From an uncultured Candidatus Saccharibacteria bacterium (lineage in GTDB: Bacteria > Patescibacteriota > Minisyncoccia > Phycocordibacterales > PALSA-1337): a DNA stretch of 64,000 nucleotides. Positions within the stretch are counted from its first letter, which is position 1. Every line of letters begins with the position of its first letter. The stretch lies in assembly GCA_964468845.1 (NCBI GenBank), contig CAYXWP010000001.1, positions 6,411-70,410 of the forward strand, in the 5' to 3' direction. Below are positions 28,754-63,448 of this stretch, in pieces. The notes beneath the pieces were generated by a model, which worked only from the letters and a program-made list of their open reading frames with translations, searched no databases and had not been told where the DNA came from. Position numbers and translations under genes: made by a program.

Positions 28754-29836
28754 ATGAATAACTTTCTGAAACACTTAAGAAGTGGCCTTTGGCTCAAATC
28801 CCCTATCTTCTGGGCTCGCTTCCTCGCTTACGCTATCCCTCTCACCTTCCTCCTCTATGTTCTATATATGAACTTCCTTCCTTTTGGCTATAATAAGAGC
28901 TTTGTAATAGATGTTGGTAGTCCTACCGATACTAAAGTCAGTGAATTCTATCTCGAACCATCGAAAGATCTCTCAGAATCAAAAGTTGGTCCTGATGGTA
29001 AAACATACCGTGAACTTAACGGTACAGCTTCAGTTGTTTTCAAACCAAAGGTCATATTAAAAAATGCTACTGCTACTATATCAGTTGATGGTGAAGGTGT
29101 GTCAATAATCCCTCCAGTAATCAACTTTGATCCATCTAGTATCACAGACTGGGACTATAGTTGGGACTTCACAAAAGGAATTCCGAAGGAATTGGTAGGC
29201 AACGCCTTCATGTTCGATGGTGCTACGTATTTCGATGGTAAAAGCAGACTAGAGCTTCCAAATACTGCAAATAAGTTTGAAAACAGAGCATTCAGTATTT
29301 ATGTAGAATGGGAGCCAAGAGATAGTGAGAATAATACCCAGCAAATCATCGGACACTATAACTGGGAAATATGGCAGAATAAAGAGACGGTAGAATTTCG
29401 TGTCGGTAGAATGACGAATAATACTGGTCCTGCATACTCACTAAAGTTTAACATCATTCCAGATTTTTTTAATAAGAGTCATACAGCACTAGCAATATAT
29501 AATCCATCAGAAAGTGGCTATATAGAATTTTATGTTGACGGTAACTTTGCTGGAAGAACATATTTTGCTAATGAAAAAATATTTACTAAATATGGGGATC
29601 AGAATTTAAGTTTGGGATGGACACCACATAACAATAGTAATAGTCCATACTTTATTGGATCGGTTTATAAGGTAAACACCGTCTCCAAGAATGTATTACA
29701 GCCTCAATCTGAGATAAGCCTTACAGCGACTAATAGTGATCCGATTTATATTTCTATTATTTCCACTTATGACACCTCAACCTCGACTGCCACCTCGACT
29801 ATTAGGCAAATAAAATTAAATGCCATTCAAAAATAA
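28754..29836 (+). CDS. Membrane-anchored LamG / concanavalin-A-like lectin domain protein
   Basis: N-terminal TM, then FDGATYFDGKSRLELP...FSIYVEWEP...EFRVG (Laminin_G_3-like). Ser/Thr-rich C-terminus. Confidence 0.45.
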   Translation: MNNFLKHLRSGLWLKSPIFWARFLAYAIPLTFLLYVLYMNFLPFGYNKSFVIDVGSPTDTKVSEFYLEPSKDLSESKVGPDGKTYRELNGTASVVFKPKVILKNATATISVDGEGVSIIPPVINFDPSSITDWDYSWDFTKGIPKELVGNAFMFDGATYFDGKSRLELPNTANKFENRAFSIYVEWEPRDSENNTQQIIGHYNWEIWQNKETVEFRVGRMTNNTGPAYSLKFNIIPDFFNKSHTALAIYNPSESGYIEFYVDGNFAGRTYFANEKIFTKYGDQNLSLGWTPHNNSNSPYFIGSVYKVNTVSKNVLQPQSEISLTATNSDPIYISIISTYDTSTSTATSTIRQIKLNAIQK

Positions 29837-31625
29837 TATAAATAAGTATATTTATTCAACATATAGGTATTTTATTATACCATTTTGCTTAATGAGTAGT
29901 ATTGTAATATTAGTCATTATTATTTATTTTCCTATCTATGGTAATACATTTAAACCTTATACTGGTTTAATTAGCCCCCTAAAATTTTTTTCAGCATTGG
30001 GATTAATCATGCTAATAATTAAATTTAATAATTATTTTAAGACCCCAAAACAATCTATAGATATAAAAAAGGAATACTTTTTTCATCCAATATTGCTCAC
30101 AGCATTTATTATTACATACATTTTAACCAGATTGTATTTTATCCTTCATTCCCCGATTAATGTCTCTGATGATTGGCAAGCGATTACTTCAGGAAAAAGC
30201 ATAATAGAAAATGGTTATTTTCCATCAATCACCACTAATGATTCTCAATATGGATATATTAGGGGCGCGTATGTTTCAATTCTTGTTGCAATATTTTTTA
30301 AATTGTTTGGATATAGTATTTATGTTGCAAAGGCAGTACCAGCTTTTATTGGATTATTAAACTCAATATTGTTTTATAATATTTGTAGCAAGATTTTTCA
30401 AAATAGGTGGGTAAAAGTATTGTCATTGATAATATATATAGTTTGTCCACTAATTATATTTAATGATTGGTTTATTAGAATGTATGTTTTTTATGAGTTT
30501 TTTGCACTTTTAAGTATATTATTTCTATTTAGGATCAATTTATTTATTGAAACTAAACAAAACAAAAAAATACTCACGTATATTATATTAATAGTCCTCA
30601 TAAATATATTTTGTTGGTTTCTAAGCTTTGATCCAGGAAAATACCTTATACTCATACTAAATATATTTGGTTTATTTGCGATTCTATTTTTAAATAGAAA
30701 AGAATTATACAAATTTGATATTATAAAAAAGATAACTTGTAATAAGTTTTTACGAATTACTGATATGTTTATATTAGTAACTATTATTATGTCTGGGTTT
30801 ATGATTAGATATTTCCCAGTAATTCAGGATAGAATATTTTTTTTATTAAATGGTAAATTAGATAACTCATTACATTTATCTTTTTATAAAATATTTTTTG
30901 AGGAAAATATAATATTAACACTTCTCTTTATTACTTCCTCATTATTTATTGTAAAATTAAAAAATAACAGTAGTAAATTAATTACCATTATAGGAATATC
31001 GTTATTTTTACTTCATTTAATTTCAAGTGATGACCTACAAGTTTCAAGAGGATTACTATATTTTATACCAATCTACATTATTATTGCTTTAATTTCACTT
31101 GAAAATATTATTGAGTGGATAGGATCTAAGTTATTTTCTATTTTACTTATTATGATAATTGTATTAAATATATTACTATCTTTTCCTTTAAATTATATTG
31201 AATCATTTCCGAGTTTAGAAAATGAACTTCACTATCAAGATGATCTTGGTTTATATTCCTTTATTAAAACAGATTTAAAAAACTATACTATATTACAATC
31301 AACATATGAAAATATGCCCGATTTATTTTTTGATACCTATACGGAATTTAATATTATATTAAATAGTCACTCTACAACTGATATACCCTATTTTTACTTT
31401 GATTCAGAAAATAATTTATATAGACAAATATCAACTAAAACACCAGTTGTGACAAACGCTGACATTTTTGAAAATAAATTTAATATTTTATTAAAAAATA
31501 AAGTAGCAATAGTAATTTTGCCACACGTTAGAGAATTATTTATTGATAATAAAACTTTTGAAGTGATAAGACAAAAACTTCCAAACTTGAGAAAATTTGT
31601 TGGATATGAAATATACTATAATTAG
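29820..31625 (+). CDS. Large polytopic membrane protein; possible second GT-C glycosyltransferase or O-antigen polymerase-like
   Basis: 601 aa, extremely AT-rich, at least 12 TM helices in the N-terminal two thirds and a soluble C-terminal domain. No diagnostic motif recognised. Confidence 0.35.
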   Translation: MPFKNNINKYIYSTYRYFIIPFCLMSSIVILVIIIYFPIYGNTFKPYTGLISPLKFFSALGLIMLIIKFNNYFKTPKQSIDIKKEYFFHPILLTAFIITYILTRLYFILHSPINVSDDWQAITSGKSIIENGYFPSITTNDSQYGYIRGAYVSILVAIFFKLFGYSIYVAKAVPAFIGLLNSILFYNICSKIFQNRWVKVLSLIIYIVCPLIIFNDWFIRMYVFYEFFALLSILFLFRINLFIETKQNKKILTYIILIVLINIFCWFLSFDPGKYLILILNIFGLFAILFLNRKELYKFDIIKKITCNKFLRITDMFILVTIIMSGFMIRYFPVIQDRIFFLLNGKLDNSLHLSFYKIFFEENIILTLLFITSSLFIVKLKNNSSKLITIIGISLFLLHLISSDDLQVSRGLLYFIPIYIIIALISLENIIEWIGSKLFSILLIMIIVLNILLSFPLNYIESFPSLENELHYQDDLGLYSFIKTDLKNYTILQSTYENMPDLFFDTYTEFNIILNSHSTTDIPYFYFDSENNLYRQISTKTPVVTNADIFENKFNILLKNKVAIVILPHVRELFIDNKTFEVIRQKLPNLRKFVGYEIYYN

Positions 31626-31629
31626 AAAT

Positions 31630-32385
31630 CTATATATTTAAAATCAGTCTTATCTTCTTTTTTATTATAAAAATATAATATCTAAGATAACCAAAATAGA
31701 ACTTAACAATCAATGATGACTCCCTATAATTTTCTCTTTTCTGTCTTGAACTCACTCCATCTATTCCATAGACAGCAACGTCTCTATCTAAGTAACCAAT
31801 TCCTTTTTTTTGAATATAAAATTTACAAATCAGATCAAAGTCAGATGCAATTCTGTAGTTTAAATTAAATAAACTAAAATTAATAATTGATCTTCTATCC
31901 ATAAAAATTGCTTGATGTGGTGGTCTCCTACCAGCTTTTATATCTTTATAATTAAATATACCTCCAATCTTATTATAATCACCGCTCTTTGACATAAAAG
32001 TTACATTTCCATACAACATATCAATTTTTTGCGTTTTGTAATAATTCATCATATCTAAAATTGAATTATTGTCAGCAATAACGTCATCCGCCCCAAGAAA
32101 ATATATAACATCACCCTTTGACAGACTAACTCCTTTGTTCATCGCGTCATAGATACCACTGTCTGGCTCGCTTATTATACAATCGATTGAATCTTGGTAT
32201 TTATCTATAATACTTAGTGTCCCATCAGTAGATTCACCATCAACAATAATATATTCAAAATTTCTATAATTCTGATGTGCGACAGACTTTATTGTATTTT
32301 CAATGGTATCTTTGGCATTAAAGACAACAGTGATGATACTAAGAAAGGGTTTATCTATTTTTTTATTTTCATATCTTTTGTGCAT
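31630..32385 (-). CDS. Family 2 glycosyltransferase
   Basis: SIITVVFNAKDTIENTIKSV...YIIVDGESTDGT and DxD. Confidence 0.8.
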   Translation of the reverse strand: MHKRYENKKIDKPFLSIITVVFNAKDTIENTIKSVAHQNYRNFEYIIVDGESTDGTLSIIDKYQDSIDCIISEPDSGIYDAMNKGVSLSKGDVIYFLGADDVIADNNSILDMMNYYKTQKIDMLYGNVTFMSKSGDYNKIGGIFNYKDIKAGRRPPHQAIFMDRRSIINFSLFNLNYRIASDFDLICKFYIQKKGIGYLDRDVAVYGIDGVSSRQKRENYRESSLIVKFYFGYLRYYIFIIKKKIRLILNI

Positions 32386-33673
32386 TTTTTTTAAGAAGAA
32401 AATAATAATATGATATAAATAATATATCAGTAAGACATCTTATACCAACCGTAGCATATACTCCACCCATAAATCCAAACTTACTAATTAACATATATGT
32501 AAATGGGATATTGAGTATGCCGAATATAAGTAAGAAATACATATTAATCTTTGCGTGTCCTGTAGCAACACTGAAGCCAACAGAAACGACAGCTGCGACA
32601 GCTTGTGTAATTAACATAATTAGCATCACATAAAATGCATTAAAGAAAATTACAGCCTGATATTTAATTAATATGTACTTTAGAATGAAAGGTACAAGTA
32701 AATATGAAGCAATAGTTAAAATAATTGAAATAACAAATATTAATGTAAAGTATTGTTTAAATTTTTTATATATTTCACTGACTCTTCCACTAGCATACAG
32801 ACCAGTAATATCAGGTGAGATCACCTGAGCAAAAATCATAAATGGTGACACTAGAATTAGAAAAATTTTATTAATCAATTCGTAAAAACCAATTTCGGAT
32901 ATATAACCAAAGTGACCTAATAGAATCACATCTACTCTGCTATATACAAAATAACTTAGACTTATTACACCAAGAATTATAGAATATTTGCTAATATTTC
33001 TAATAACTGATAAATCAACTTTAATCTTCCATTCTCTTGGCCAATAGCCAATCAGAATAGCTAAAAAAAAGATAATTGAAAATACGTTATTAGCCCAAAG
33101 AGCACCAAACAATCCCCAAAAATATATAAGGGGTAAAGAAATAATTAATCCAATAATACCCGTAAATGCGGTTATAATTGATAGTTTTTTAAATAATTTT
33201 AACCCGCGATATATTCCTGTATAGATATAAGTTAACGGAAGAAAAATTAATGATGGAATTAAATTTTTTACAAATATGAACTCCTTTCCTAATAGAGATG
33301 GTCCAAATATTAATAATAACAAACTCAATAATATTAAAATAGATCCAACAAAAACCAACGTACTAAATGATAAATATTTTAGTTTGTCTTTATTAGTTTC
33401 ATTATACTCGGCAACATATTTTGATGTTGCAGTAGATACACCAAAATCTCCAAATAAAACAAGTAGCATCAATATGGCTACTGAATAATTATAAATACCA
33501 AAGTCATATGAATTTAATAACCACGCTGATATAAAAAATACACCCAATATAAACAGCTGTTTCCCTGATATTTGAATAAACTGCCAAAAAGTATTAGCTA
33601 GTGTTTTTTTATTATTTAAATATATTATTCTTATTTTGTTAATCATTTTTAATACGTTTATATAAGACTGCAA
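32369..33673 (-). CDS. Wzx-like oligosaccharide flippase (MOP superfamily, polysaccharide biosynthesis protein)
   Basis: 434 aa with 12-14 TM helices and the typical MOP-flippase hydrophobic profile. Confidence 0.6.
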   Translation of the reverse strand: MQSYINVLKMINKIRIIYLNNKKTLANTFWQFIQISGKQLFILGVFFISAWLLNSYDFGIYNYSVAILMLLVLFGDFGVSTATSKYVAEYNETNKDKLKYLSFSTLVFVGSILILLSLLLLIFGPSLLGKEFIFVKNLIPSLIFLPLTYIYTGIYRGLKLFKKLSIITAFTGIIGLIISLPLIYFWGLFGALWANNVFSIIFFLAILIGYWPREWKIKVDLSVIRNISKYSIILGVISLSYFVYSRVDVILLGHFGYISEIGFYELINKIFLILVSPFMIFAQVISPDITGLYASGRVSEIYKKFKQYFTLIFVISIILTIASYLLVPFILKYILIKYQAVIFFNAFYVMLIMLITQAVAAVVSVGFSVATGHAKINMYFLLIFGILNIPFTYMLISKFGFMGGVYATVGIRCLTDILFISYYYFLLKKNAQKI

Positions 33674-34598
33674 AGTTAGTTATGATTAACGATAAACCAT
33701 CCATCCATGGCTTAATTAATAAGCTTTGAAAAAATAAACCAGTTTGATGTGCAGATTTAATTGAGAAAAAAATTAATAATCCTCCACCAATCATGAAAAG
33801 CAGTAGTGAAAGCTTTGGAATATATACGCAACTTAATAATATTATTAAAAAATATATTATTGGTATATTAAAACGAAATAATACACTTAATGGGTCATTC
33901 ATACCCATTTTAATCATGGTTGCTCGCCCTAAAGAACCTTTAATCAATGTAGAAATATAATCTAGAAAAAATGATGTATTGTCATGAAAAATAAAAGTGT
34001 GAGGGTTATAAATAATATTATAATTTGATTTAAATATTCTTTCACAAAGCTCTTTATCCTCAGAGAAACGGGTAACATTTGATGTTGTTTGTAGTTTTTC
34101 GAGAAAATTACCTACTTTTTTTAGAACATTTTTTCGAATCGCGAGATTGCAACTAGGACATCCACGCATATATTTAAAATGTTTGAACCTAGGATACCCA
34201 TCTAATAGTGCAACTCCGAGATAGTTTGATATCCAAGTTACGTTAAATGGTAAAATCATGCCTATTCCAGCACCAGTTTTAGTATCTACGAAAGTTTCGT
34301 CATTACAAAAATTTAGATACTCAGAATCAATTTTTGTATCGGCATCAAGAAATAATAGAATTTCTCCTAATGATTTTTCTATTCCTAAATTTCTAGCCTC
34401 AGATGGCCCACTCTTAACTTCTAAAAATACTTTTATTGGATATTTTCTAGCTATGTTTATGCTTGCGTCATTAGAATTATTATCAACATAAATAATTTCG
34501 TATGCTTTTTTTGGATAATTTAATTTTAGACATGATTGAATACATCTATCTAAATTTTTTTCTTCATTATAACCACATATAATTATACTAAATTTCAT
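33639..34598 (-). CDS. Family 2 glycosyltransferase with C-terminal TM helices
   Basis: FSIIICGYNEEKNLDRCIQS...IIYVDNNSNDAS and the DAD motif. Confidence 0.75.
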   Translation of the reverse strand: MKFSIIICGYNEEKNLDRCIQSCLKLNYPKKAYEIIYVDNNSNDASINIARKYPIKVFLEVKSGPSEARNLGIEKSLGEILLFLDADTKIDSEYLNFCNDETFVDTKTGAGIGMILPFNVTWISNYLGVALLDGYPRFKHFKYMRGCPSCNLAIRKNVLKKVGNFLEKLQTTSNVTRFSEDKELCERIFKSNYNIIYNPHTFIFHDNTSFFLDYISTLIKGSLGRATMIKMGMNDPLSVLFRFNIPIIYFLIILLSCVYIPKLSLLLFMIGGGLLIFFSIKSAHQTGLFFQSLLIKPWMDGLSLIITNFAVLYKRIKND

Positions 34599-34599
34599 A

Positions 34600-35715
34600 T
34601 TATTTTATATACTTTTCAGCAATTTTTTTTAAATTAAATTGATTACTATATTTTATTATTTTTTCTCTATTAAAATAATTTTCGTTAAAAATAGTCCCTA
34701 TGTCTTTTATAGTCTGATCTATATTATTATATTCAATTAAAAAACCATTTGTATTATTTACTAAGTCAGCCTGTCCACCATTATTTGTTGCTACGATTGG
34801 TAGACCGACTTGCATAGCTTCCTGCAAGACAATTCCAAAACCTTCATGAACAGACGATAGAAAAAATATATCACTATTTTGTAAATATTGAAACTTTTTG
34901 TTTTGATCTATAAACCCAGTAAAGATTATCTTATTAGATATACCTAGTTTATAAGCTAAATTTTTTAATTGTTTCTCCTCTGGACCATCACCAATTATTA
35001 TTCCAATGACATTATTTGGTAATTTAGATATAACTTTAATAAAAAAATCAAAGCCTTTTCTTTTTACAAGCCTACCGACTCCGATAACATACTTTTTATC
35101 TACTTCCAAACCTATTTCTGATCTACTTTTTTTATCAAATGGCACCAACTCGTATGGTAGTGGGATAATCTGTATATCATTTTTAGGGTGATAATATTTT
35201 ATACAATTTTCCTTCGTATTTGAAGATTGGGCCACTATAGTATTGGCTCTATTTAAAAGGAAAGTAATGCATTTCCTTAAATACCAATGTAAGTGAGGCG
35301 AATTATTTTTAGTTGGATCATATATATCACCACCATGAAGAGAGACTATATTTTTAATATGAAATAGTCTTGCTAAAATATATCCAAGTGGGCCAGTAGG
35401 CACTACAAACTGGGTATTAATAAACTCATATTTATTCTTTCTACATAAAGATATCCCTTTCCACAACCCAGAAATTGGATAACAGAGCATGGAAATAGTT
35501 GTGGCGGTAGATAATTCCTTTCTGCCAAAAACTTTTACTCTATATACATTAATACCATCAATAATCTCAAACTTTCTTAATCCTTTATACCATGTAGTAA
35601 TGTAGTCTACCTGATAACCAAGTTCTACAAAACCTTTTGCTAATTTATGAGCAGCAACACCTCCTCCCCCACCAAGTGGTGGAAATTCATAGTTTAGGAC
35701 TAATATCTTTTTCAT
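34600..35715 (-). CDS. Family 4 (GT-B, group 1) glycosyltransferase
   Basis: N-terminal GGGGGVAAH and the C-terminal EGFGIVLQEAMQVGLPIVAT (E-x7-E region). Confidence 0.8.
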   Translation of the reverse strand: MKKILVLNYEFPPLGGGGGVAAHKLAKGFVELGYQVDYITTWYKGLRKFEIIDGINVYRVKVFGRKELSTATTISMLCYPISGLWKGISLCRKNKYEFINTQFVVPTGPLGYILARLFHIKNIVSLHGGDIYDPTKNNSPHLHWYLRKCITFLLNRANTIVAQSSNTKENCIKYYHPKNDIQIIPLPYELVPFDKKSRSEIGLEVDKKYVIGVGRLVKRKGFDFFIKVISKLPNNVIGIIIGDGPEEKQLKNLAYKLGISNKIIFTGFIDQNKKFQYLQNSDIFFLSSVHEGFGIVLQEAMQVGLPIVATNNGGQADLVNNTNGFLIEYNNIDQTIKDIGTIFNENYFNREKIIKYSNQFNLKKIAEKYIK

Positions 35716-36677
35716 TATTTTATTAGAATCTCTCTCACTCTATATCTCCTCTCATGTTTCGATGTATTGAATCGAATACCAATAAGTAGATCAATTACAA
35801 TACCGAAACTAAATAATATTATACCAGCAATTATTAGAAATGCTGTTATGAAGAAGAGGCCGTTTCTGTTGAACCCAAGGCCCATAAATATTTTTTCATA
35901 AAGAGTCCAGAATCCTGCTACGAATCCAAAGAAGAAACATGTGATACTTGCGTAGCCAAAAAGGTGCAGAGGTCTTTGTGAATATTTCTGTATAAACCAA
36001 ATATATACTAGGTCGATAAAACCTCGTATTGCTTTACTGCAATTATATTTACTCTTACCAACTGTCCTTGGGCGATGATTCACTACCAATTCACCAATTC
36101 TAAAACCTTTCCATTTTAAAATAGCTAGAATATAACGATGCATCTCACCTCCTATATCTAGACAATCAACTGCCTCCTTTGTATAAACTCGAAGCATACA
36201 CCCACTATCATGAACAATATCACCTATAAGTATTCGGCGAAGTATACGGCCAATACGTGTAAGAATATTAATACTAGAGCTATCCATTCTCTTCTTTCTC
36301 CATCCAGCAACTACATCTAGGTTCTCTTTTATTAGCTTATCAAAAAGGAGTGGTATATCAGCTGGATCATTCTGACAATCGCCATCCATAGTTACTACAT
36401 ACTTGCCAGTACAAGCTCTAAAACCAGCGTCTAAGGCTGTTGCTTGACCATAGTTACGGTTTAGATTGATGATCTTCGCATTACTTAGTGTATTGAGCTC
36501 TGTTAGGGTTTCATCAGTACTACCATCATTCACATAAATAACTTCGTAATCTCCTGAAATATCAGACAAAGATGTTTTTATTTCCTGATCTAGTCTACTA
36601 ATATTCCCTGCTTCATTATATATAGGGACCACAATAGACAGTCTTTTTCCTGTATTTTCCATAAAAATACTATACAT
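35715..36677 (-). CDS. Polyprenyl-phosphate glycosyltransferase (GT2; GtrB / ArnC / DPM1-like)
   Basis: LSIVVPIYNEAGNI...VIYVNDGSTDET and DGD, plus two C-terminal TM helices characteristic of Und-P-sugar synthases. Confidence 0.7.
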   Translation of the reverse strand: MYSIFMENTGKRLSIVVPIYNEAGNISRLDQEIKTSLSDISGDYEVIYVNDGSTDETLTELNTLSNAKIINLNRNYGQATALDAGFRACTGKYVVTMDGDCQNDPADIPLLFDKLIKENLDVVAGWRKKRMDSSSINILTRIGRILRRILIGDIVHDSGCMLRVYTKEAVDCLDIGGEMHRYILAILKWKGFRIGELVVNHRPRTVGKSKYNCSKAIRGFIDLVYIWFIQKYSQRPLHLFGYASITCFFFGFVAGFWTLYEKIFMGLGFNRNGLFFITAFLIIAGIILFSFGIVIDLLIGIRFNTSKHERRYRVREILIK

Positions 36678-48306: not shown

Positions 48307-48780
48307 ATGCAAAAGAAATGTGATCACACAAGTGTAGGAATGCTTGTTTGGAAGGATGAAAAACTTCTATTAATAGAGAGGAGGAAGTTTCCCTTTGGCT
48401 TCGCGATACCTGCTGGACACGTTGATGGGGATTCAACATTTGAGGACGCAGCAATACGAGAACTGAGAGAGGAAGTCGGCTTGGATTCTATCAATTTAGA
48501 ACCTGTTTATGATATAAAAAAAGAAAATCCATGCAGACGCGAGGACGGGACCTGGCATCACTGGAAAATATTTAAAACCGAAATTATTGGAGAGGGGGAA
48601 TTGAAACGTAGTGAAAGCGAGACGAAACAAGCAAATTGGTTTGATAAAGATCAAATACGCGCATTAGCTGAAAAAACTGCGAGATATTTTGATAAAAAAA
48701 TATCTGACGAGGAATGGGAGAAGAGTCCTGGGCTTGAACCAGTGATGTACGAGTTTTTCAAGGAATTAAAAATTATATAG
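48307..48780 (+). CDS. NUDIX hydrolase
   Basis: Nudix box GHVDGDSTFEDAAIRELREEVGL. Confidence 0.75.
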   Translation: MQKKCDHTSVGMLVWKDEKLLLIERRKFPFGFAIPAGHVDGDSTFEDAAIRELREEVGLDSINLEPVYDIKKENPCRREDGTWHHWKIFKTEIIGEGELKRSESETKQANWFDKDQIRALAEKTARYFDKKISDEEWEKSPGLEPVMYEFFKELKII

Positions 48781-49861: not shown

Positions 49862-50326
49862 TCAACTCCAGAGCCCATTTTTTAATTCCTCCCTAATTTC
49901 CATCCAAATTTTCCCGATGTGATTTAAGCCCTCACCATCTATCCCATCATCCCAAAAGCCATCACCTGGTGGATAAGTCACGATATGCTTCACAATTTTT
50001 ACATCTCCAGAATTAATTAATGCTTTTATCACCTCTTCATGTTGCACGGCCTTAAGTTTCATAAGCTTCTTCATTACTAGGAGTTTATATTCTTCACTTT
50101 TAAATTCTGGAATTTGCAAATGCTTATATTTTGTAGAAACCTCCCAAGCCTTCACTGGGCTATGTGCATTAATAATTTCACTCCTTATTTTCTGATCCGT
50201 ATACCTTTGACATTGATATGCATGCTCTACAGTAGGATAAACAACGCCATCAATCTCTATCGCATGCGCCGTGTATGGTGAAAAATATATGTAAAATATT
50301 TCTAAAGGTAAAATTTCATTTTTCAT
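49862..50326 (-). CDS. NADAR (YbiA/DUF1768) family protein
   Basis: FYIYFSPYTAHAIEIDGVVYPTVEHAYQCQRY...GDGFWDDGIDGEGLNHIGKIWMEIR. Confidence 0.7.
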   Translation of the reverse strand: MKNEILPLEIFYIYFSPYTAHAIEIDGVVYPTVEHAYQCQRYTDQKIRSEIINAHSPVKAWEVSTKYKHLQIPEFKSEEYKLLVMKKLMKLKAVQHEEVIKALINSGDVKIVKHIVTYPPGDGFWDDGIDGEGLNHIGKIWMEIREELKNGLWS

Positions 50327-51598: not shown

Positions 51599-52144
51599 CT
51601 ATTTTAATAAATCATCTGGCGTTGATAAATCATAACCCAATTCCTTTGCTCTAAGCGCAGATTTTTTCAAAAAATAGACCCAATGATCGTAATCCTTGTT
51701 CTCATTATGTGCTATCCAACTAGAAAGAATGTCCTCTGCACTTACCCAATCGAGTGTAAACCTTTCGTGATCCTCTAGTTTGGTATCCACTAGTTTTCTA
51801 CTTTTTAATATTACAAGAAAACATGTAGCCATTGCTGACCTGTTTACATTCTTTAAAACATTATGAAAATGTGTAAACACTTTAGCAATTTTCTCAACGC
51901 ACAGAAAATCATACAGGCCACTTTCTTCAACAACTTCTCTCAAAACGCCCTCCTGAATATCTTCTTTATCGCTAACCCCACCAGAAAAAAGTATGTACCT
52001 ACCCCTTTTTATTTGATCACCAACTGCATACTTTTGTGTTTCTGGATCAAAGACAACAGCACATCCGCCATCGCGACGCTCCTCATTTTCTCGCTTAATT
52101 CCAAATTCTAGAATGCCATCTAAAGTCATGTAGCTATTATACAC
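51599..52144 (-). CDS. NUDIX hydrolase (divergent)
   Basis: Nudix-like GGVSDKEDIQEGVLREVVEESGL. Confidence 0.5.
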   Translation of the reverse strand: MYNSYMTLDGILEFGIKRENEERRDGGCAVVFDPETQKYAVGDQIKRGRYILFSGGVSDKEDIQEGVLREVVEESGLYDFLCVEKIAKVFTHFHNVLKNVNRSAMATCFLVILKSRKLVDTKLEDHERFTLDWVSAEDILSSWIAHNENKDYDHWVYFLKKSALRAKELGYDLSTPDDLLK

Positions 52145-52916: not shown

Positions 52917-54221
52917 TCAATCAATCGCGCCCGAAATGGAATTGGTCGCCTTATCGCCAATATCATGTCGCATCTGCTTGCCATTGAAATGGATTTCGTT
53001 GGCAGCAGCATAAGCACGTTTCTTAGCTATATGAAGATTTTCTCCCCAAGCAGTGACTCCTAGGACTCGTCCCCCATTGGTACCAAACATCTGGCCCATG
53101 CGCTTAGTCCCAGCATGAAAGATTTTGACATTGTCCATTTTGGATACTCGATCGAGCCCCCAAATCAACTGATCGTTACTTTGCCCTTTCGGATACCCCT
53201 TTGAGGCAAGCACGATGCAGACCGAGGCACCCGGAAACCAGTCCAATTTAACATGGCTGGAACCGCCGTCCGACGAGCATGCATATAGAACTTCAAACAG
53301 ATCGGAGCCAAGCCTGGACAGATATGCTTGAGCTTCCGGATCACCAAAGCGGGCATTAAATTCGAGAACCTTCAAACCCTTGTCCGTGAGCATAACCCCT
53401 GGATAGAGTAAACCTCGATAATCGATACCTTCTGTTACGCATCCATCATGCCAGTGTGCAATTATATCCTCATTGATTTTCTTGAGTAGCCCATTGTGAA
53501 CAAATGGCGTGGGAAAATATGCACCCATACCGCCTGTCATGGGACCTTGATCACCATCAAGAAAATGCTTATGATCTTGAGAAGTCGGAAATAGATACAC
53601 GTTCCTCGCGTTGCAAAGAATGTGAAGTGAGATCTCTGTTCCAACAAGCCGTTCCTGTATAAGAATTGGAGAGTCCGGCTTATTCGCAAACTTAGCATCA
53701 ATCATCTCAATGGCCTCCTCAATGAAATCTGGTAAACTCACACCCTTGCCCCTACATAATCCATCAGATTTAATGACACATCGCCCACCAAGTTTTTCAA
53801 CGTAATGTTTTGCAGGTTCTGGGTCGCTAAACACTTCCCCATTTGGCGATGGAATACCATAACGCTTCATGAAGTTGTGAGAATAAACCTTGGATGACTC
53901 AAGTTGTGCAGCCTTCTGATTTGGTCCGAATATGGCAAACTTTTTCCTTGCAAAGAGATCCGCAATACCGATTGCAAGCGGATCGTCAGGACCGACAACA
54001 GTCAGTGTTGGTTTCTTCTCACAAGCAAAGCTAAAAAGTCGTGGCAAATCTGTGACCTTAATACCAACGCATTGCACGGAATTGCCGTTCTTCAGTCGCT
54101 CTTGTGCTATACCAGGATTACCTGGAGCACACCACAGTTCCGTAACTTGTGGTGATTGTGCCAATGACCACACTAACGCATGTTCCCTACCACCTCCGCC
54201 AATAACCAGTACAGTGCTCAT
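52917..54221 (-). CDS. purD: Phosphoribosylamine--glycine ligase (GAR synthetase), copy 1; GC-rich
   Basis: MSTVLVIGGGGREHALVW and an ATP-grasp domain with LEFNARFGDPE. The start is trimmed to the Met at 54221 because the track's N-terminal extension is AT-rich leader. Confidence 0.9.
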   Translation of the reverse strand: MSTVLVIGGGGREHALVWSLAQSPQVTELWCAPGNPGIAQERLKNGNSVQCVGIKVTDLPRLFSFACEKKPTLTVVGPDDPLAIGIADLFARKKFAIFGPNQKAAQLESSKVYSHNFMKRYGIPSPNGEVFSDPEPAKHYVEKLGGRCVIKSDGLCRGKGVSLPDFIEEAIEMIDAKFANKPDSPILIQERLVGTEISLHILCNARNVYLFPTSQDHKHFLDGDQGPMTGGMGAYFPTPFVHNGLLKKINEDIIAHWHDGCVTEGIDYRGLLYPGVMLTDKGLKVLEFNARFGDPEAQAYLSRLGSDLFEVLYACSSDGGSSHVKLDWFPGASVCIVLASKGYPKGQSNDQLIWGLDRVSKMDNVKIFHAGTKRMGQMFGTNGGRVLGVTAWGENLHIAKKRAYAAANEIHFNGKQMRHDIGDKATNSISGAID

Positions 54222-54844: not shown

Positions 54845-54984
54845 AAATATACGCTTTCTATTATATCAAACCTATAAATTTAATCCTTGCATTTTCTACA
54901 TCAAAATGTAACATTACTTTTAGACACCTTGAGTGAGGTGTGCATTAGCAAAAATACGAAAAAACTAACCAAAAAGGAGGAGCT

Positions 54985-56475
54985 ATGGCTCACATCCCTC
55001 AGTCAGTACTTGAAAAACAAGCAGTTATCGAAGGCCTCAGTCTGCGTGGTCGTGGAAAAGTTCGCGAATCGTATGACCTGCTCGGGCATCCAAACGAAAT
55101 GCTAGTGGTGGCATCAAACCGCTGTAGCATCTTCGATTTTGTTTTACCAGCCTTGGTCCGCCTTAAAGGAGAAATCCTGACGGCGATGAACCACTTTTGG
55201 GTGACGAATGTCATCGGTGAAATCTTTGAAACCGACCTCGTCGCCTGCGGATCCGGCGTGGATCTGTTTCTGCCAGAGGGTCTGCGTGGTAATGCGGAAC
55301 TTCAGAAGCAAGCCACGGTGGTGAGAATTCTCCCCGCTCCAGACGTTGAGGACGTCGTACGTTTTATCCTCACTGGAGGTGGTTGGGAAAGCTACAAGGC
55401 AACGCAAAGCATCTGTGGGCATCGCTTTCCGAATGGCCTCAGTGATGGAAGCAGGCTTCCATTTCCAGTTTACACCCCAACAACGAAAGCGGCCGTCGGT
55501 CATGATGAACACATCACTGCCGACAGTGTCGCCGAACGTTATGGTGTAAAACGCGAAAGGATGTCTCTGCAGGTAGCTGGGCTTATCGCAAGTTACGCTG
55601 CCAGTCGTGGAATTATTCTCGCAGACACCAAGTTTGAGTTCAGTCTGAGCAATGGGAAGTTGATTTTGGCGGATGAAAAAGGAACCCCGGACTCGAGCCG
55701 ATTCGTCGACAAGGCGACCTGGGAAAAACTCGCGTCAAAGGGCAAGTTTCCGCCCTCACTCGACAAACAATACATTCGTGATTGGGGCATCAAAGCAGGG
55801 GTCAAAATACGAGATCCCCGTAAAGCTGAGGATCTAGCCTTTGTTGACTCGCTTGAAGTGCCGGAACGAGTCACAGATATGACCACCAGCATTTACCGCT
55901 ATGTCTTCTGGAGGCTGACCGGCAAGCAAATCGAGTATTATCAGCGTGACATCTTGGGAATCGCCATGCAGACACCCACACGACGCAAGATCCATGTCGT
56001 GGTCGGAAGCGAAAGCGACTTACCGCAAATTGTCAGGGGGGTTGATTCCATGCGAGTTGTTGCTGACGTGGGTGTAAGCGCCATCAGTTGTCATCGCAAC
56101 CCGGATGAACTGCGACGTTTCGTTCGTGATGAACTAACCACGACTGATGTAGTCATCGCCGGCGCTGGGAAAGCTGCAGCATTACCTGGAATTATCAAGA
56201 GCTACTTGTGCGAACTCGGCAGCCATGTGCCAGTCATTGGTGTTGCCCTTGATTCTGAAAACAGGAAGGACAATGATGCAGCAATATATTCGATTGAATG
56301 CTTGCCAGGGCAACCTGTCGAACTTGATGCCGACGGCAATGCCTATTTCGGCCCAATCGGTTTCATGAAGGCTTGTAGTGCCGCTTCGTGGGATGAGTTC
56401 CTCCCGAAGGCAGTCGAACACAAACCTGCGAAAATCCATATCGAGGGGCAACTTGGGCGGTCTTATCCCCACTAA
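54985..56475 (+). CDS. Bifunctional SAICAR synthetase (PurC) / N5-CAIR mutase-type PurE fusion protein; GC-rich
   Basis: The N-terminal about 300 aa carry PurC motifs (RGRGKVRESYDL, SNRCSIFDF, FWV). The C-terminal about 170 aa carry PurE motifs (HVVVGSESDLPQ, SCHRNPDEL, IAGAGKAAALPG, PVIGVAL). The AGAGxAAxLPG form is class I-like. Confidence 0.8.
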   Translation: MAHIPQSVLEKQAVIEGLSLRGRGKVRESYDLLGHPNEMLVVASNRCSIFDFVLPALVRLKGEILTAMNHFWVTNVIGEIFETDLVACGSGVDLFLPEGLRGNAELQKQATVVRILPAPDVEDVVRFILTGGGWESYKATQSICGHRFPNGLSDGSRLPFPVYTPTTKAAVGHDEHITADSVAERYGVKRERMSLQVAGLIASYAASRGIILADTKFEFSLSNGKLILADEKGTPDSSRFVDKATWEKLASKGKFPPSLDKQYIRDWGIKAGVKIRDPRKAEDLAFVDSLEVPERVTDMTTSIYRYVFWRLTGKQIEYYQRDILGIAMQTPTRRKIHVVVGSESDLPQIVRGVDSMRVVADVGVSAISCHRNPDELRRFVRDELTTTDVVIAGAGKAAALPGIIKSYLCELGSHVPVIGVALDSENRKDNDAAIYSIECLPGQPVELDADGNAYFGPIGFMKACSAASWDEFLPKAVEHKPAKIHIEGQLGRSYPH

Positions 56476-56514: not shown

Positions 56515-56548
56515 CCAGCGTATGAAAATACGCTGGTATTTTATTTTC
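56515..56548 (+). terminator. Intrinsic terminator of the purC-purE gene
   Basis: Perfect ccagcgtat / atacgctgg stem with a GAAA loop, then TATTTTATTTTC. Confidence 0.6.
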
Positions 56549-56638
56549 ATAATAAATTTACTCCCATTAAATTTGCCAAAATTAATAATTCATGATATTT
56601 TGCTAAGCAGTCTGAACCTTACCAACCAAGGCACCACT

Positions 56639-57205
56639 ATGTTTATCGAATCCATCGACCGCTGGCTACTTACTAACGTTTTTCAGAAGTTCTCCAACTG
56701 GTTTCAAAGACTTACTGGCAAAGACAACTTCTTTCTTGCTAATGTCTGCATATTCATGGAACTGACTTGCAGCATAATCCGATCGATTTATATAAAGAAA
56801 GATGTTCGCTTCATTGTGATCACTTCTGATTTCGTGTTCGCTATTATATTTTTTTTCACGGTGAAGCTAATAAGAATGCGTCATAAACAAATGTCCATTA
56901 AGTCAATGGGAATGAACCCTTTGGCGATAAGCCCAGGAAGTATTTTGATGAGAGTGATTGGTGTAGTTATAGTATTTACTGGGATCATCAAATTCTTTGT
57001 GGATTTGAAAATGCATGGAGGTATTCCAACAGATACTCTGATCAAGTTTGTGTTTGAACAGGCTGGATCAGGATTTATGGTATCAGCCTTCTATCTGATA
57101 GCTTGCACTCCACTACCACCTCAGAAAGGTAAGATCAGCGAGTGGCTAACTAACTTAGGGGAATCCCTCGCGAACAGAATGTCCCCAGTGCCAGAGCCGG
57201 TGTGA
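56639..57205 (+). CDS. Hypothetical multi-pass membrane protein
   Basis: The track's ORF starts at 56522, inside the terminator hairpin. The Met at 56639 (MFIESIDRW) is the more plausible start. 4-5 TM helices. Confidence 0.35.
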   Translation: MFIESIDRWLLTNVFQKFSNWFQRLTGKDNFFLANVCIFMELTCSIIRSIYIKKDVRFIVITSDFVFAIIFFFTVKLIRMRHKQMSIKSMGMNPLAISPGSILMRVIGVVIVFTGIIKFFVDLKMHGGIPTDTLIKFVFEQAGSGFMVSAFYLIACTPLPPQKGKISEWLTNLGESLANRMSPVPEPV

Positions 57206-58445: not shown

Positions 58446-58943
58446 TTACTTAATTAATAAATTAATAATACTATGTAGAGACGTAACATATTTATCAGGA
58501 TAATTTTTCATATCAAGAAGAAGATCATCTTTATTAATCCATTTAATTTGCTCGACTTCATCCTCTTGAATAACAAATTGCTCAATGGATCTATCTATCT
58601 CACAAAGAAACCACTGACCAAAATATTTTCTTGGCGATACAGAGTGTTGTTTCGGACCTAATTCTAATTTTATACCTGTTACTCCAATTTCTTCCTCAAG
58701 TTCTTTATACGCATTTGACTCGTATGTCTCTCCTTCTTCAACAGTTCCGGCAGCAGCAGGTCCCCACTTTCCTGGATCCTTACTTTTTGTAAATTTCCTC
58801 TGAGCGATTAGTATTTCACCTTGAGAATTGACCAACCAAATACCAGTACATCTATATGTTTCTTTTAAATAATCCACTTCATCACGATATTTTGTTCCCA
58901 CTGGAACATCATTATCATCTACGATAACTACCTTCTTTTTCAT
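58446..58943 (-). CDS. NUDIX hydrolase (IDI-like architecture)
   Basis: Nudix box AAGTVEEGETYESNAYKELEEEIGV. Confidence 0.65.
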   Translation of the reverse strand: MKKKVVIVDDNDVPVGTKYRDEVDYLKETYRCTGIWLVNSQGEILIAQRKFTKSKDPGKWGPAAAGTVEEGETYESNAYKELEEEIGVTGIKLELGPKQHSVSPRKYFGQWFLCEIDRSIEQFVIQEDEVEQIKWINKDDLLLDMKNYPDKYVTSLHSIINLLIK

Positions 58944-60228: not shown

Positions 60229-61524
60229 TCAGTGGACCGCCAAGGACTTGGCACCGATATCTTTCCGATACTGTGCACCTTCGAAGTCGATGCACTCCAC
60301 ACCGTTGTAAGCGTGATCGAGTGCTTCCTGTAGCGTTGCACCGATGCCGGTGACACCGAGGACACGTCCGCCAGATGTGACGAGATGGCTATCAGTTTGC
60401 TTGGTACCTGCATGGAACACGACGACGCCAGGAAGAATCTCGGCGTTATCGATGCCTGTGATCGGCAGACCTTTTTTGTAGTTAGGCGATGGGTAGCCAC
60501 CGGACGCCATTACAATGCAGGCAGCGAAGCCCGGATTCCACTCGACGTTGATCTCATGGAGTCGTCCTTCGACGCACGCCTCCAAGATGTCGAGCAGATC
60601 TGTTTTCAAGAGACACATGTAAACCTGTGTCTCCGGATCGCCGAATCGCGCATTGAACTCGAGGACCATGGGTCCCGCTTCTGGCATCTTGAGTCCGGGA
60701 TAAAGCAAACCGACGAACGGCGAGCCTTTTTCGCGGAGCCCGCTAAGAATTGGGCCGATGATCTGTTCACTCACCGCATTGTGGTCTTTGAACCACGGGA
60801 CCGGAGCAATCGTACCCATGCCACCGGTGTTCGAACCATCGTCGCCATCGAATGCCGGCTTATGATCCTGCGCTGACGGAAACAGCTTGAACGACTTGCC
60901 ATCGCAGAACGCATGGATAGACACTTCCTGTCCGCCTACATATTCTTCGATGATGACCTCATCGCCAGCGCTTCCATGAAGGTGCTTCACCATGACCTCG
61001 TCGAGAGCCTGTTCAGCTTCGGTAAAATCACGGCAGACGTACGCTCCTTTTCCGAGAGCGAGACCTGATGCCTTCACGACAATCGGTAGTCCAAAGTACG
61101 TAGCAAAATGCCTGCGCACGTCCTCGAGGACTTGAGTGTGGTCCGTGTAAACATCGAACAATGCTGTCGGCACGCCGCAATCTTTCATGAGACGTTTCGA
61201 GAACACCTTCGATGCCTCGATTTGAGCCGCTGCCTTGGTGGGACCGAAGATGCGAAGGCCTTTTGCCTGAAATGCATCCACGATGCCGAGTGCGAGCGGA
61301 TCGTCTTGGCCGACGATAGTGAATTCGATCCCTTCCTTGAGTGCGAAGGCTAAGAGGCCGTCAACGTCCGTAGCTTTCACTGGAACGTTTTCTGCGATCT
61401 GAGCCGTGCCAGCATTACCTGGAGCGACGAAGAGTTTGCCGAGTCGGGGGGATTGGCGAAGTTTCCACGCAATTGCGTGTTCACGGCCGCCACCTCCGAC
61501 CAGTAGGACTTTCATTTGGTTCAT
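60229..61524 (-). CDS. purD: Phosphoribosylamine--glycine ligase (GAR synthetase), copy 2; strongly GC-rich
   Basis: MKVLLVGGGGREHAIAW and an ATP-grasp domain with LEFNARFGDPE. AAGGAG lies 8 nt upstream of the ATG. Roughly 40-45% identical to copy 1 by eye. Confidence 0.9.
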   Translation of the reverse strand: MNQMKVLLVGGGGREHAIAWKLRQSPRLGKLFVAPGNAGTAQIAENVPVKATDVDGLLAFALKEGIEFTIVGQDDPLALGIVDAFQAKGLRIFGPTKAAAQIEASKVFSKRLMKDCGVPTALFDVYTDHTQVLEDVRRHFATYFGLPIVVKASGLALGKGAYVCRDFTEAEQALDEVMVKHLHGSAGDEVIIEEYVGGQEVSIHAFCDGKSFKLFPSAQDHKPAFDGDDGSNTGGMGTIAPVPWFKDHNAVSEQIIGPILSGLREKGSPFVGLLYPGLKMPEAGPMVLEFNARFGDPETQVYMCLLKTDLLDILEACVEGRLHEINVEWNPGFAACIVMASGGYPSPNYKKGLPITGIDNAEILPGVVVFHAGTKQTDSHLVTSGGRVLGVTGIGATLQEALDHAYNGVECIDFEGAQYRKDIGAKSLAVH

Positions 61525-62782: not shown

Positions 62783-63448
62783 TTATCCCAAATGGGTATG
62801 GTCGTTGTAAATCCAAAGTCTCCAACTATCCTCCTGTCCAAAACTTGATTGGTAACGGATAACCGTAATGCCAGTATTTTCCGTATGTGCGCTCTTTTGA
62901 AATTTAAAGAATATTTCTTCAGACAGTGAATCACCGACAAGTATCCGGGCAATCAATGTACGCAAGAAAAATCCATGAGTAATTACAACAATTGATTGTT
63001 CTGATTTGTCCTGCAGAAATTTAAGTGCCTTATCAGCGCGTTTTAAAATATCATCAAAATTTTCTCCGTCAGAAATACGCATGCCTGAGATATATAAACT
63101 CTTCTCCCATTCATTCCAAATATCATTTGCCACCTTATCCTCATGAGGTTTACCATTTATAGAAGTTGGCTTCACCCTTTCGACAAATAGATTTGAAAAT
63201 TCATACGTTTTCCCAGTAGCTTTAGCAATAAAGTCGGCAGTTTCTTTCGCCCTTTCTAATGGACTTGTGATTAAGACATCGAATCGTAATTTAGCTATTC
63301 TCTTTGCTATAGACTCTGCTTGTTTTTTGCCAAGCATGCTAAGTGGAGAATCGGGAGATTGGAATACAGAAGTAGCATTATGTTCGCTCTGTCCGTGACG
63401 AATAAAATAAACTATCTTTTTGATATTTTTATCAAGTTTGACATTCAT
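62783..63448 (-). CDS. Histidine phosphatase (phosphoglycerate mutase-like) family protein
   Basis: VYFIRHGQSEHN catalytic RHG motif and a downstream His. Confidence 0.7.
   Translation of the reverse strand: MNVKLDKNIKKIVYFIRHGQSEHNATSVFQSPDSPLSMLGKKQAESIAKRIAKLRFDVLITSPLERAKETADFIAKATGKTYEFSNLFVERVKPTSINGKPHEDKVANDIWNEWEKSLYISGMRISDGENFDDILKRADKALKFLQDKSEQSIVVITHGFFLRTLIARILVGDSLSEEIFFKFQKSAHTENTGITVIRYQSSFGQEDSWRLWIYNDHTHLG

Follow-up and report, generated by a model that had tools for sequence, protein, structure and literature searches.

A PurC–PurE fusion protein of Patescibacteria with a PurE-type half that fits neither PurE class cleanly

The fusion gene and its product

The DNA analysed here (the window) is a 64,000-nucleotide stretch of contig CAYXWP010000001.1 (assembly GCA_964468845.1) from an uncultured Candidatus Saccharibacteria bacterium. 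On its + strand, at 54985–56475, it carries a purC–purE′ fusion gene of 496 codons plus stop codon with an ATG start, in which purC, for succinylaminoimidazolecarboxamide ribonucleotide (SAICAR) synthetase, is followed in frame by a gene for a PurE-type domain. A Shine–Dalgarno sequence (AAGGAGG; 54974–54980, + strand) can be read 4 nt before the ATG, and a terminator-like hairpin on the same strand (56515–56546; a 9-bp stem with five GC pairs, then a T-run) lies 40 nt past the stop codon. The gene appears to form a monocistronic unit of its own, and no riboswitch or other Rfam family was matched within 52–62 kb of the window. The PurC half, of the long yeast/Mycobacterium subtype (Pfam accession PF01259), spans residues 1–322 (54985–55950) and is connected by the linker LGIAMQTPTRR (residues 323–333; 55951–55983) to the PurE-type domain (PF00731; residues 334–470; 55984–56394), which forms a clade of its own. 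A C-terminal tail (residues 471–496; 56395–56472) occupies the place of the long C-terminal helix of canonical PurE.

An earlier note on this DNA had proposed a single polypeptide of 496 residues with PurC followed by PurE, and this proposal stands. The open reading frame (ORF) is exact, and Pfam/HMMER domain mapping places SAICAR_synt in the N-terminal part (residues 23–270; 156.5 bits against a cut-off of 20) and AIRC in the C-terminal part (residues 335–444; 54 bits against a cut-off of 30, covering profile positions 1–107 of 148), so that the PurE region does align. All four motifs that had been quoted (GSESDLPQ, SCHRNPDEL, IAGAGKAAALPG and PVIGVAL) occur in the translation, and the NCBIfam models also identify the two halves as PurC and PurE, both divergent. 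An AlphaFold2 (AF2) model built on the family alignment has a mean predicted local distance difference test score (pLDDT) of 95.9 and a predicted template-modelling score of 0.93; in it the linker is a coil (pLDDT ≥94) between a helix (residues 316–322) and a strand (residues 334–340).

Independent assemblies of groundwater metagenome runs (SRR2177968, SRR2177952 and SRR2177950) yielded five contigs that encode this same 496-residue protein beside the same neighbouring genes, and more than 120 clusters at 90% identity contain both domains without interruption in proteins of about 485–500 residues, with identities down to 47%. The frameshift or stop codon between the domains for which the earlier note had allowed is therefore not upheld, and the probability that the fusion stems from a frameshift in sequencing, an overlooked stop codon or assembly chimerism is negligible, even though frameshifted copies do occur in some related loci (L021 and L041) from low-coverage or long-read assemblies; the confidence of the AF2 model across the domain junction also speaks against an artefact.

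Residue conservation was counted over a family alignment of 116 full-length members, to which all counts given below refer. The profile of this family scored 249 and 235 bits against the PurC structures with PDB codes 1a48 and 6yvq, respectively, and in a Foldseek comparison the PurC half of the model superposed on yeast and Mycobacterium abscessus PurC (PDB codes 2cnq, 1obg and 6yvq) with TM-scores of 0.80–0.86 and r.m.s.d. values of 3.1–4.7 Å. The residues that contact ATP and CAIR (4-carboxy-5-aminoimidazole ribonucleotide) in Escherichia coli PurC were taken from the literature (PMC3261824), using a reference sequence identical to PDB entry 2gqr over 237 of 237 residues. The equivalents of Lys11, Arg94, Asp175, Lys177, Glu179, Asp191, Arg199, Lys211 and Arg215 are invariant in all 116 members, and the position of Lys13 is occupied by an equally invariant arginine (Arg27).

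Class of the PurE-type half

PurE is a textbook case of one fold with two classes: class I is an N5-carboxyaminoimidazole ribonucleotide (N5-CAIR) mutase that depends on PurK and ATP, and class II is a direct 5-aminoimidazole ribonucleotide (AIR) carboxylase. The difference between them has been exploited as an antibacterial target. For the assignment of residues, the numbering of the E. coli PurE reference was confirmed as exact against PDB entry 1qcz, residues 264–425 of human PAICS were exact against the PDB, and the Bombyx and Treponema denticola references were read alongside.

Three loops can be recognized in the PurE-type half. The P-loop, G341-S-E-S-D345 (56005–56019, + strand), corresponds to Gly15–Asp19 of E. 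coli PurE; Gly341 and Ser342 are invariant, Ser344 is kept in 102 of the 116 members and Asp345 in 115. The 40s loop, S368-C-H370-R-N-P373 (56086–56103, + strand), which contains the catalytic histidine, was placed by HMMER alignment to PDB entry 1o4v and corresponds to S43-A-H45-R-T-P in E. coli; here the serine is found in every member, the cysteine in 112, the histidine in 111, the arginine in 115 and the asparagine in 113. The universal PurE catalytic residues Ser342, Asp345, Ser368, His370 and Arg371 are thus each kept in 111–116 of the sequences. The 70s loop, A392-G-A-G-K396-A-A-A399-L-P-G402 (56158–56190, + strand), is nearly invariant in the form A-G-A-G-x-A-A-[A/Q]-L-P-G; Lys396 lies at the position of E. 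coli Gly72 (Arg331 in class II) and Ala399 at that of E. coli His75. In the tail, Glu471 and Phe472 are invariant and Lys480 is nearly so, and the AF2 model shows coil after the helix of residues 456–469, with the pLDDT dropping to 83 and then to 59 and the long C-terminal helix absent.

The earlier note had held that the PurE half is not of class II, and this is supported on several counts. The half superposes on class I PurE structures with an r.m.s.d. of 2.3–2.7 Å over about 140 residues, and the family profile scores 59–77 bits against class I chains and 19–37 bits against class II chains; a search with the single sequence matched none of the class II chains, even at E ≤ 1. The class II signatures S-A-H-K, A-G-R-S-N-[GA]-L-[GS] and C-P-P are absent, their places being taken by S-C-H-R, A-G-K-A-A-A-L-P-G and G-V-A, and the catalytic histidine is followed by arginine, where class II has lysine. 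As the half is nearer to class I by profile, has this arginine and lacks the class II signatures, we conclude from its sequence that it does not belong to class II.

Nor is it a regular class I enzyme. With the class I enzymes from E. coli (PDB code 1qcz), Thermotoga maritima (PDB code 1o4v) and Acetobacter aceti (PDB code 1u11) it shares the fold, 28–33% sequence identity, the P-loop GS.SD, the 40s S-x-H-R-x-P, the 70s A-G-A-G-x-A-A-x-L-P-G and the 100s xPGxPV. However, HMMER pairs IAGAGKAAALPG with IAGAGGAAHLPG of the T. maritima enzyme, so that Ala399 stands in place of the class I hallmark His75; this position is alanine or glutamine in about 103 of the 116 members and histidine in one. 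The 70s loop had been described as the class I form, a description that does not hold, since class I reads AGAGGAAHLPG. Further differences from class I are cysteine for Ala44, asparagine for Thr47, a five-residue insertion after the 70s helix, the change of G-V-P to G-V-A, the loss of the long C-terminal helix, the junction with PurC and the lack of a PurK nearby. The second-best PDB match of the PurE half is the H89G mutant of A. aceti PurE, in which that same histidine is missing. Scores to class I enzymes (29–51 bits) are as low as those between class I and class II enzymes (32–46 bits), and in a neighbour-joining tree the fused PurE domains form a separate clade. The sister clade in this tree consists of stand-alone PurE-like genes (loci L072, L073, L079 and L081), which share G-V-A-F and L-S-I-x-E-x-P-G with the fused domains but retain the 70s-loop histidine. 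The class I label is therefore apt only in part: profile and fold lie nearer to class I, but the active-site hallmark His75, the C-terminal helix and the score expected of a class I PurE are missing, and the domains branch on their own. The PurE half fits neither class cleanly.

Two positions in the 70s loop invite comparison with class II. The T. denticola enzyme (PDB code 3rg8), against which the family profile scores 19–23 bits and none of whose signature motifs occurs in the fusion, likewise has a small residue at position 75 (glycine, compared with alanine here). In the carboxylase site of PAICS this position holds the carboxylate through its backbone NH (PMC9376930), and an alanine there is therefore compatible with catalysis. 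The window copy also has a basic residue, Lys396, at the position of the phosphate-contacting Arg331 of class II (PMC9376930); we considered Lys396 as the counterpart of this arginine and rejected the idea, because the position varies within the family (Met, Lys, Glu or Leu).

Stand-alone class I-like PurEs encoded upstream of purC were also seen in six loci from the Candidate Phyla Radiation (CPR; L046, L049, L055, L059, L063 and L068) and in one Acidobacteriaceae metagenome-assembled genome (MAG; L062). They score 66–93 bits against E. coli PurE and are otherwise canonical, but carry A-G-M-A-A-A-L-P, with alanine for His75, so that the loss of this histidine is not confined to the fused clade. 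Another stand-alone PurE directly upstream of purC (L058, 9411–9968; Ca. Falkowbacteria, PFAT01000036.1) has the class II-like S-A-H-K and I-S-C-A-P and groups with T. denticola PurE and PAICS in the tree; a CPR bacterium would then have a PurE of the class II type.

The family, its origin and its genomic setting

A database search for other PurC–PurE fusions returned the more than 120 clusters mentioned above, mostly from Patescibacteria; the named relatives are Patescibacteria/CPR MAGs assigned to Uhrbacteria, Buchananbacteria, Taylorbacteria, Staskawiczbacteria, Parcubacteria/Paceibacterota and others. Species-representative genomes were scanned as well and gave 80 loci. About 30 of these (GTDB representatives) have the fusion; in the others purC and purE stand as separate genes in that order, a purE of canonical appearance lies upstream of purC, or PurC occurs alone. 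When the PurE half was searched against 1.84 billion representative sequences, only 97 matches were found at E ≤ 10⁻¹⁰; about 35 of these were fusions, as were about 35 among the 150 best-ranked representatives, and stand-alone PurEs of the S-C-H-R type also turned up. The fusion had been called unusual, and rare overall it is, but it belongs to a sizeable conserved family of Patescibacteria. Fusions in the reverse order, PurE–PurC, were found as well (P0183, 455 residues; P0254, 505 residues); in P0183 the PurC half resembles the short type of PAICS and E. coli (…VIDNDSWRL…). An odd PurE–Clp_N–Sua5/YrdC fusion of 653 residues (P0262) was also noted.

Two of the loci with separate genes, L072 and L081, suggest how the fusion may have come about. 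Here purC ends in …YQ[RK]E.MGV* and is followed, after the stop codon and a spacer of 16–17 nt, by purE′ starting M.KK[IL].[VI]AII.GS; linker residues 323–333 of the fusion correspond to this stop codon and spacer. The fusion would thus have originated inside Patescibacteria when neighbouring purC and purE′ genes lost the purC stop codon and the spacer of about 17 nt, as loss of the stop codon in such a pair would give a linker of about ten residues exactly as found in the fusion. Together with the reverse-order fusions, the separate pairs indicate that purE and purC have been joined more than once, in both orders. The frameshift-interrupted copies at L021 (10001–11485, a long-read MAG) and L041 (272–1791) are either sequencing errors or pseudogenes and can pass for unfused pairs. 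L041 was considered as such a pair, with a 4-bp overlap, and rejected: one frame reads through, and the split results from an upstream frameshift on a contig of 1.08× coverage.

The domain order recalls PAICS (PDB codes 2h31, 6yb8 and 4ja0), which is also a single chain with an N-terminal PurC domain and a C-terminal domain of the PurE fold that carries out the same two consecutive steps. The earlier note saw in this order a mirror of PAICS; the likeness holds for the order of the domains but not for the PurC subtype, the PurE type or the domain packing. The family profile finds PAICS only in its PurE stretch (30–37 bits) and does not match its PurC domain; the PurE domain of PAICS is of class II (S-A-H-K, A-G-R-S-N-G-L-G-P and C-P-P) and retains the C-terminal helix that the fusion lacks. 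Whole-chain superposition of the model on PAICS gave r.m.s.d. values of 13–15 Å and TM-scores of 0.41–0.49, indicating that, as modelled, the two domains pack differently. Since PurC subtype, PurE type and packing all differ, the fusion arose independently of animal PAICS, and the likeness, which is one of domain order only, is convergent. Fungal and plant Ade2 likewise joins PurE to a pathway neighbour, but to PurK, the enzyme upstream of it, and with a canonical class I domain as its PurE (e.g. P0243, AIRC 212 bits).

The presence of PurK was examined with an E. coli query sequence that differs at one residue from PDB entry 1b6s. A search of the six-frame ORFs of at least 70 residues found no PurK in the window at E ≤ 10⁻³, and in Pfam scans of 44 window ORFs the only ATP-grasp enzymes were two PurDs, in agreement with the earlier note, which had reported no PurK partner there. 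A phmmer search of 82 non-redundant related loci (1.25 Mb in all, about 20 kb or 2–3% of each genome) also found no PurK, while detecting PurB 27 times, PurH nine times, GuaA six times, PurN four times, PurD twice and PurM once. Serine hydroxymethyltransferase and FolD recur near the fusion loci, and with PurB, PurH and GuaA nearby the fusion is set in a context of purine and one-carbon genes. In bacteria purE and purK are usually adjacent, as in the purEK operon; every purE-type gene seen in the related loci adjoins purC and never purK.

Most of the remainder of the window is typical housekeeping sequence, with cell-wall enzymes, tRNA synthetases, MreB, a type IV pilus ATPase and glycosyltransferases, and the only other purine genes are two copies of purD (glycinamide ribonucleotide synthetase), both on the − strand. 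Copy 1 (52917–54221), oriented divergently to the fusion gene, scores 427 bits against TIGR00877 (cut-off 288) and contains GARS_N, GARS_A and GARS_C, as does copy 2 (60229–61524) according to Pfam. Although they lie within 8 kb, the copies share only 41% identity over 434 residues (blastp) and appear to have been acquired separately, not duplicated; speculatively, one of the two ATP-grasp enzymes may have changed its role. Between purD copy 1 and the fusion lies a nucleotidyltransferase gene (NTP_transf_6, PF06042; 54296–54844, − strand), which overlaps a long GTG-started version of the purD copy 1 ORF and is not a recurrent neighbour elsewhere; the real purD start is probably the methionine at about 54221. 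Downstream of the fusion, the hairpin overlaps the ATG at 56522 of a listed ORF (56522–57205) for a 227-residue product without a Pfam match that resembles a membrane protein. As other gene callers place a later start, yielding 188 residues, the listed start is probably wrong.

The purine genes stand out in composition. The G+C content (GC) and the GC at third codon positions (GC3) are 0.516 and 0.519 for the fusion gene, 0.549 and 0.595 for purD copy 2 and 0.464 and 0.412 for purD copy 1, compared with a window mean GC of 0.363 and values of 0.28–0.41 (GC) and, for most, 0.22–0.30 (GC3) among neighbouring and housekeeping genes. We considered this anomaly as clean evidence of transfer and rejected it as such, because the GC of the fusion gene exceeds that of its flanks in all 26 fused loci (by 0.07 on average) and only the size of the excess here, at 0.157 near the maximum, is suggestive. 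The large excess in GC and GC3 nevertheless suggests that the purine genes of this genome were acquired horizontally, which fits the scattered distribution of nucleotide-synthesis genes across this phylum (bioRxiv 10.64898/2026.06.21.733656).

Genes for handling nucleotides or ADP-ribose cluster around the purine genes (48307–48780, 49862–50326, 51599–52144, 58446–58943 and 62783–63448) and encode three NUDIX hydrolases, a NADAR-domain protein and a histidine phosphatase. At 30000–36000 the GC is very low (0.23–0.30), with glycosyltransferase and polysaccharide-export genes and two large ORFs without a Pfam match (28754–29836 and 29820–31625); this stretch may be a surface-glycan island.

Proposed function and implications

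As both active sites show purifying selection, both halves are probably active and the protein is probably bifunctional. The C-terminal PurE-type domain would form CAIR, and the N-terminal PurC domain would use ATP to ligate aspartate to it, yielding SAICAR. For its part of the work, the PurE domain would rely on the universal core (Ser16, Ser18 and Asp19; Ser43, His45 and Arg46 in E. coli numbering) carried on a class-I-like scaffold from which His75 and the C-terminal helix have been lost. We propose, at about even odds (a probability of roughly 0.5), that this half makes CAIR without a dedicated PurK, either from N5-CAIR that AIR and CO2 form spontaneously or by direct carboxylation of AIR, and that the unfavourable CAIR-forming equilibrium is pulled by the physically coupled ATP-driven PurC step. 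Independence from PurK would then possibly be a trait shared with class II PurE. Archaeal class-I-like PurE occurs without PurK in organisms of CO2-rich anoxic habitats, in which PurE alone can cover the functions of purE and purK (PMC3261824). These archaeal and methanobacterial enzymes are stand-alone proteins or PurE–PurE′ fusions rather than PurC fusions, and are reported to retain the class I positions except Met14, whereas the fused clade lacks His75 (PMC3261824). A more tentative extension, which we regard as possible but the less probable view, is that the PurE clade with S-C-H-R and A-A-[A/Q]-L-P-G represents a third functional kind of PurE, forming CAIR independently of PurK on a class-I-derived scaffold without His75; such an enzyme would be viable because it has been welded repeatedly, in both orders, to an ATP-consuming PurC that pulls the equilibrium.

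Several observations weigh against PurK-free CAIR formation by a bifunctional protein. The PurE half does not reach the cut-off of the purE equivalog TIGR01162 (50.6 against 149.6 bits), and loss of the C-terminal helix, as seen in the model, could affect the octamer that builds the PurE active sites. The PurC half narrowly misses its NCBIfam cut-off (best model PRK13961, 229.4 against 251 bits), a near miss consistent with a divergent PurC subfamily. At the CAIR-contacting position of E. coli Ser100, which is serine in 103 of the 116 members, the window copy has Gly132 (55378–55380), the sole glycine at this position in the family. The failure to find PurK is only suggestive, because other early pathway genes (purM, purD and purN) are likewise rare in the neighbourhoods sampled, and the rationale of kinetic coupling or channelling is one that we infer.

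The principal alternative is that the protein is bifunctional but has as its PurE half an ordinary class I N5-CAIR mutase dependent on a PurK encoded elsewhere, the fusion merely co-expressing two steps. We consider this conceivable though somewhat doubtful. It is in keeping with the higher scores of the family profile against class I chains and with the arginine after the catalytic histidine in the 40s loop, and only about 2–3% of each genome was covered, a sample in which other early pur genes are rarely nearby either. A. aceti PurE mutants at His89, the equivalent of His75, reportedly retain activity. That such mutants exist is confirmed by PDB entries 2fw8, 2fwa and 2fwb. Set against an ordinary mutase are the loss of the hallmark histidine across the whole family, a score far under the purE equivalog cut-off, the lack of PurK both in the 64-kb window and in the 1.25 Mb around the 82 related loci, and the fact that the partner of purE here is always purC, unlike the usual purEK adjacency.

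The remaining explanations, a scaffold role, a different chemistry or an artefact, are all much less likely than a PurK-dependent mutase. A PurE-like half that does some other carboxylation, decarboxylation or hydrolysis, like LarB or on another imidazole or pyridine nucleotide, would account for the distinct clade with invariant residues of its own (Cys369, Asn372, Gln348 and Glu471-Phe472) and for a weak match to LarB (E = 0.0033). This is nonetheless improbable: the LarB match amounts to 17 bits against a cut-off of 175, the best sequence, profile and fold matches are all to PurE, purB, purH and guaA are among the neighbours, and the half is joined covalently to PurC, which takes the PurE product as its substrate. 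It is very unlikely, too, that the half is catalytically dead and serves PurC for oligomerization or as a scaffold, with CAIR coming from another protein. Such a role could be reconciled with the weak match to PurE models and the loss of His75 and the C-terminal helix, and has a precedent in the PurE′ domain of unclear role in methanobacterial PurE–PurE′ (PMC3261824), but across 116 sequences with identities down to 47% there is hardly any variation in the catalytic histidine, serine, arginine and aspartate or in the substrate-binding loops, a constancy that one would not expect of a scaffold, and neither the window nor any fused locus showed a second PurE.

Fusion of consecutive enzymes is a common theme and both folds are known, but a bacterial PurC–PurE fusion appears to be new to the literature that we searched: full-text searches found no description of one and no account of the purK status of CPR bacteria, and one review refers to PurCE fusions only as 'common in eukaryotes' (PMC3261824). 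The PAICS architecture has evolved at least twice. The family reported here is a large natural one with the shared PurE core, no His75, no class II signatures and a link to PurC, and so provides a ready-made test of what determines the PurE class and of whether the ATP that PurK spends can be made up for by coupling to PurC. Animals need no PurK. If the clade is indeed a third kind of PurE, it would amount to a bacterial re-invention of the PAICS solution and would show which residues truly separate mutase from carboxylase chemistry. Public records label the proteins of this family only as SAICAR synthase; because of this annotation, reconstructions of purine synthesis in Patescibacteria may count the PurE step as absent, a point of relevance to the debate over how many of these ultra-small bacteria make purines de novo.

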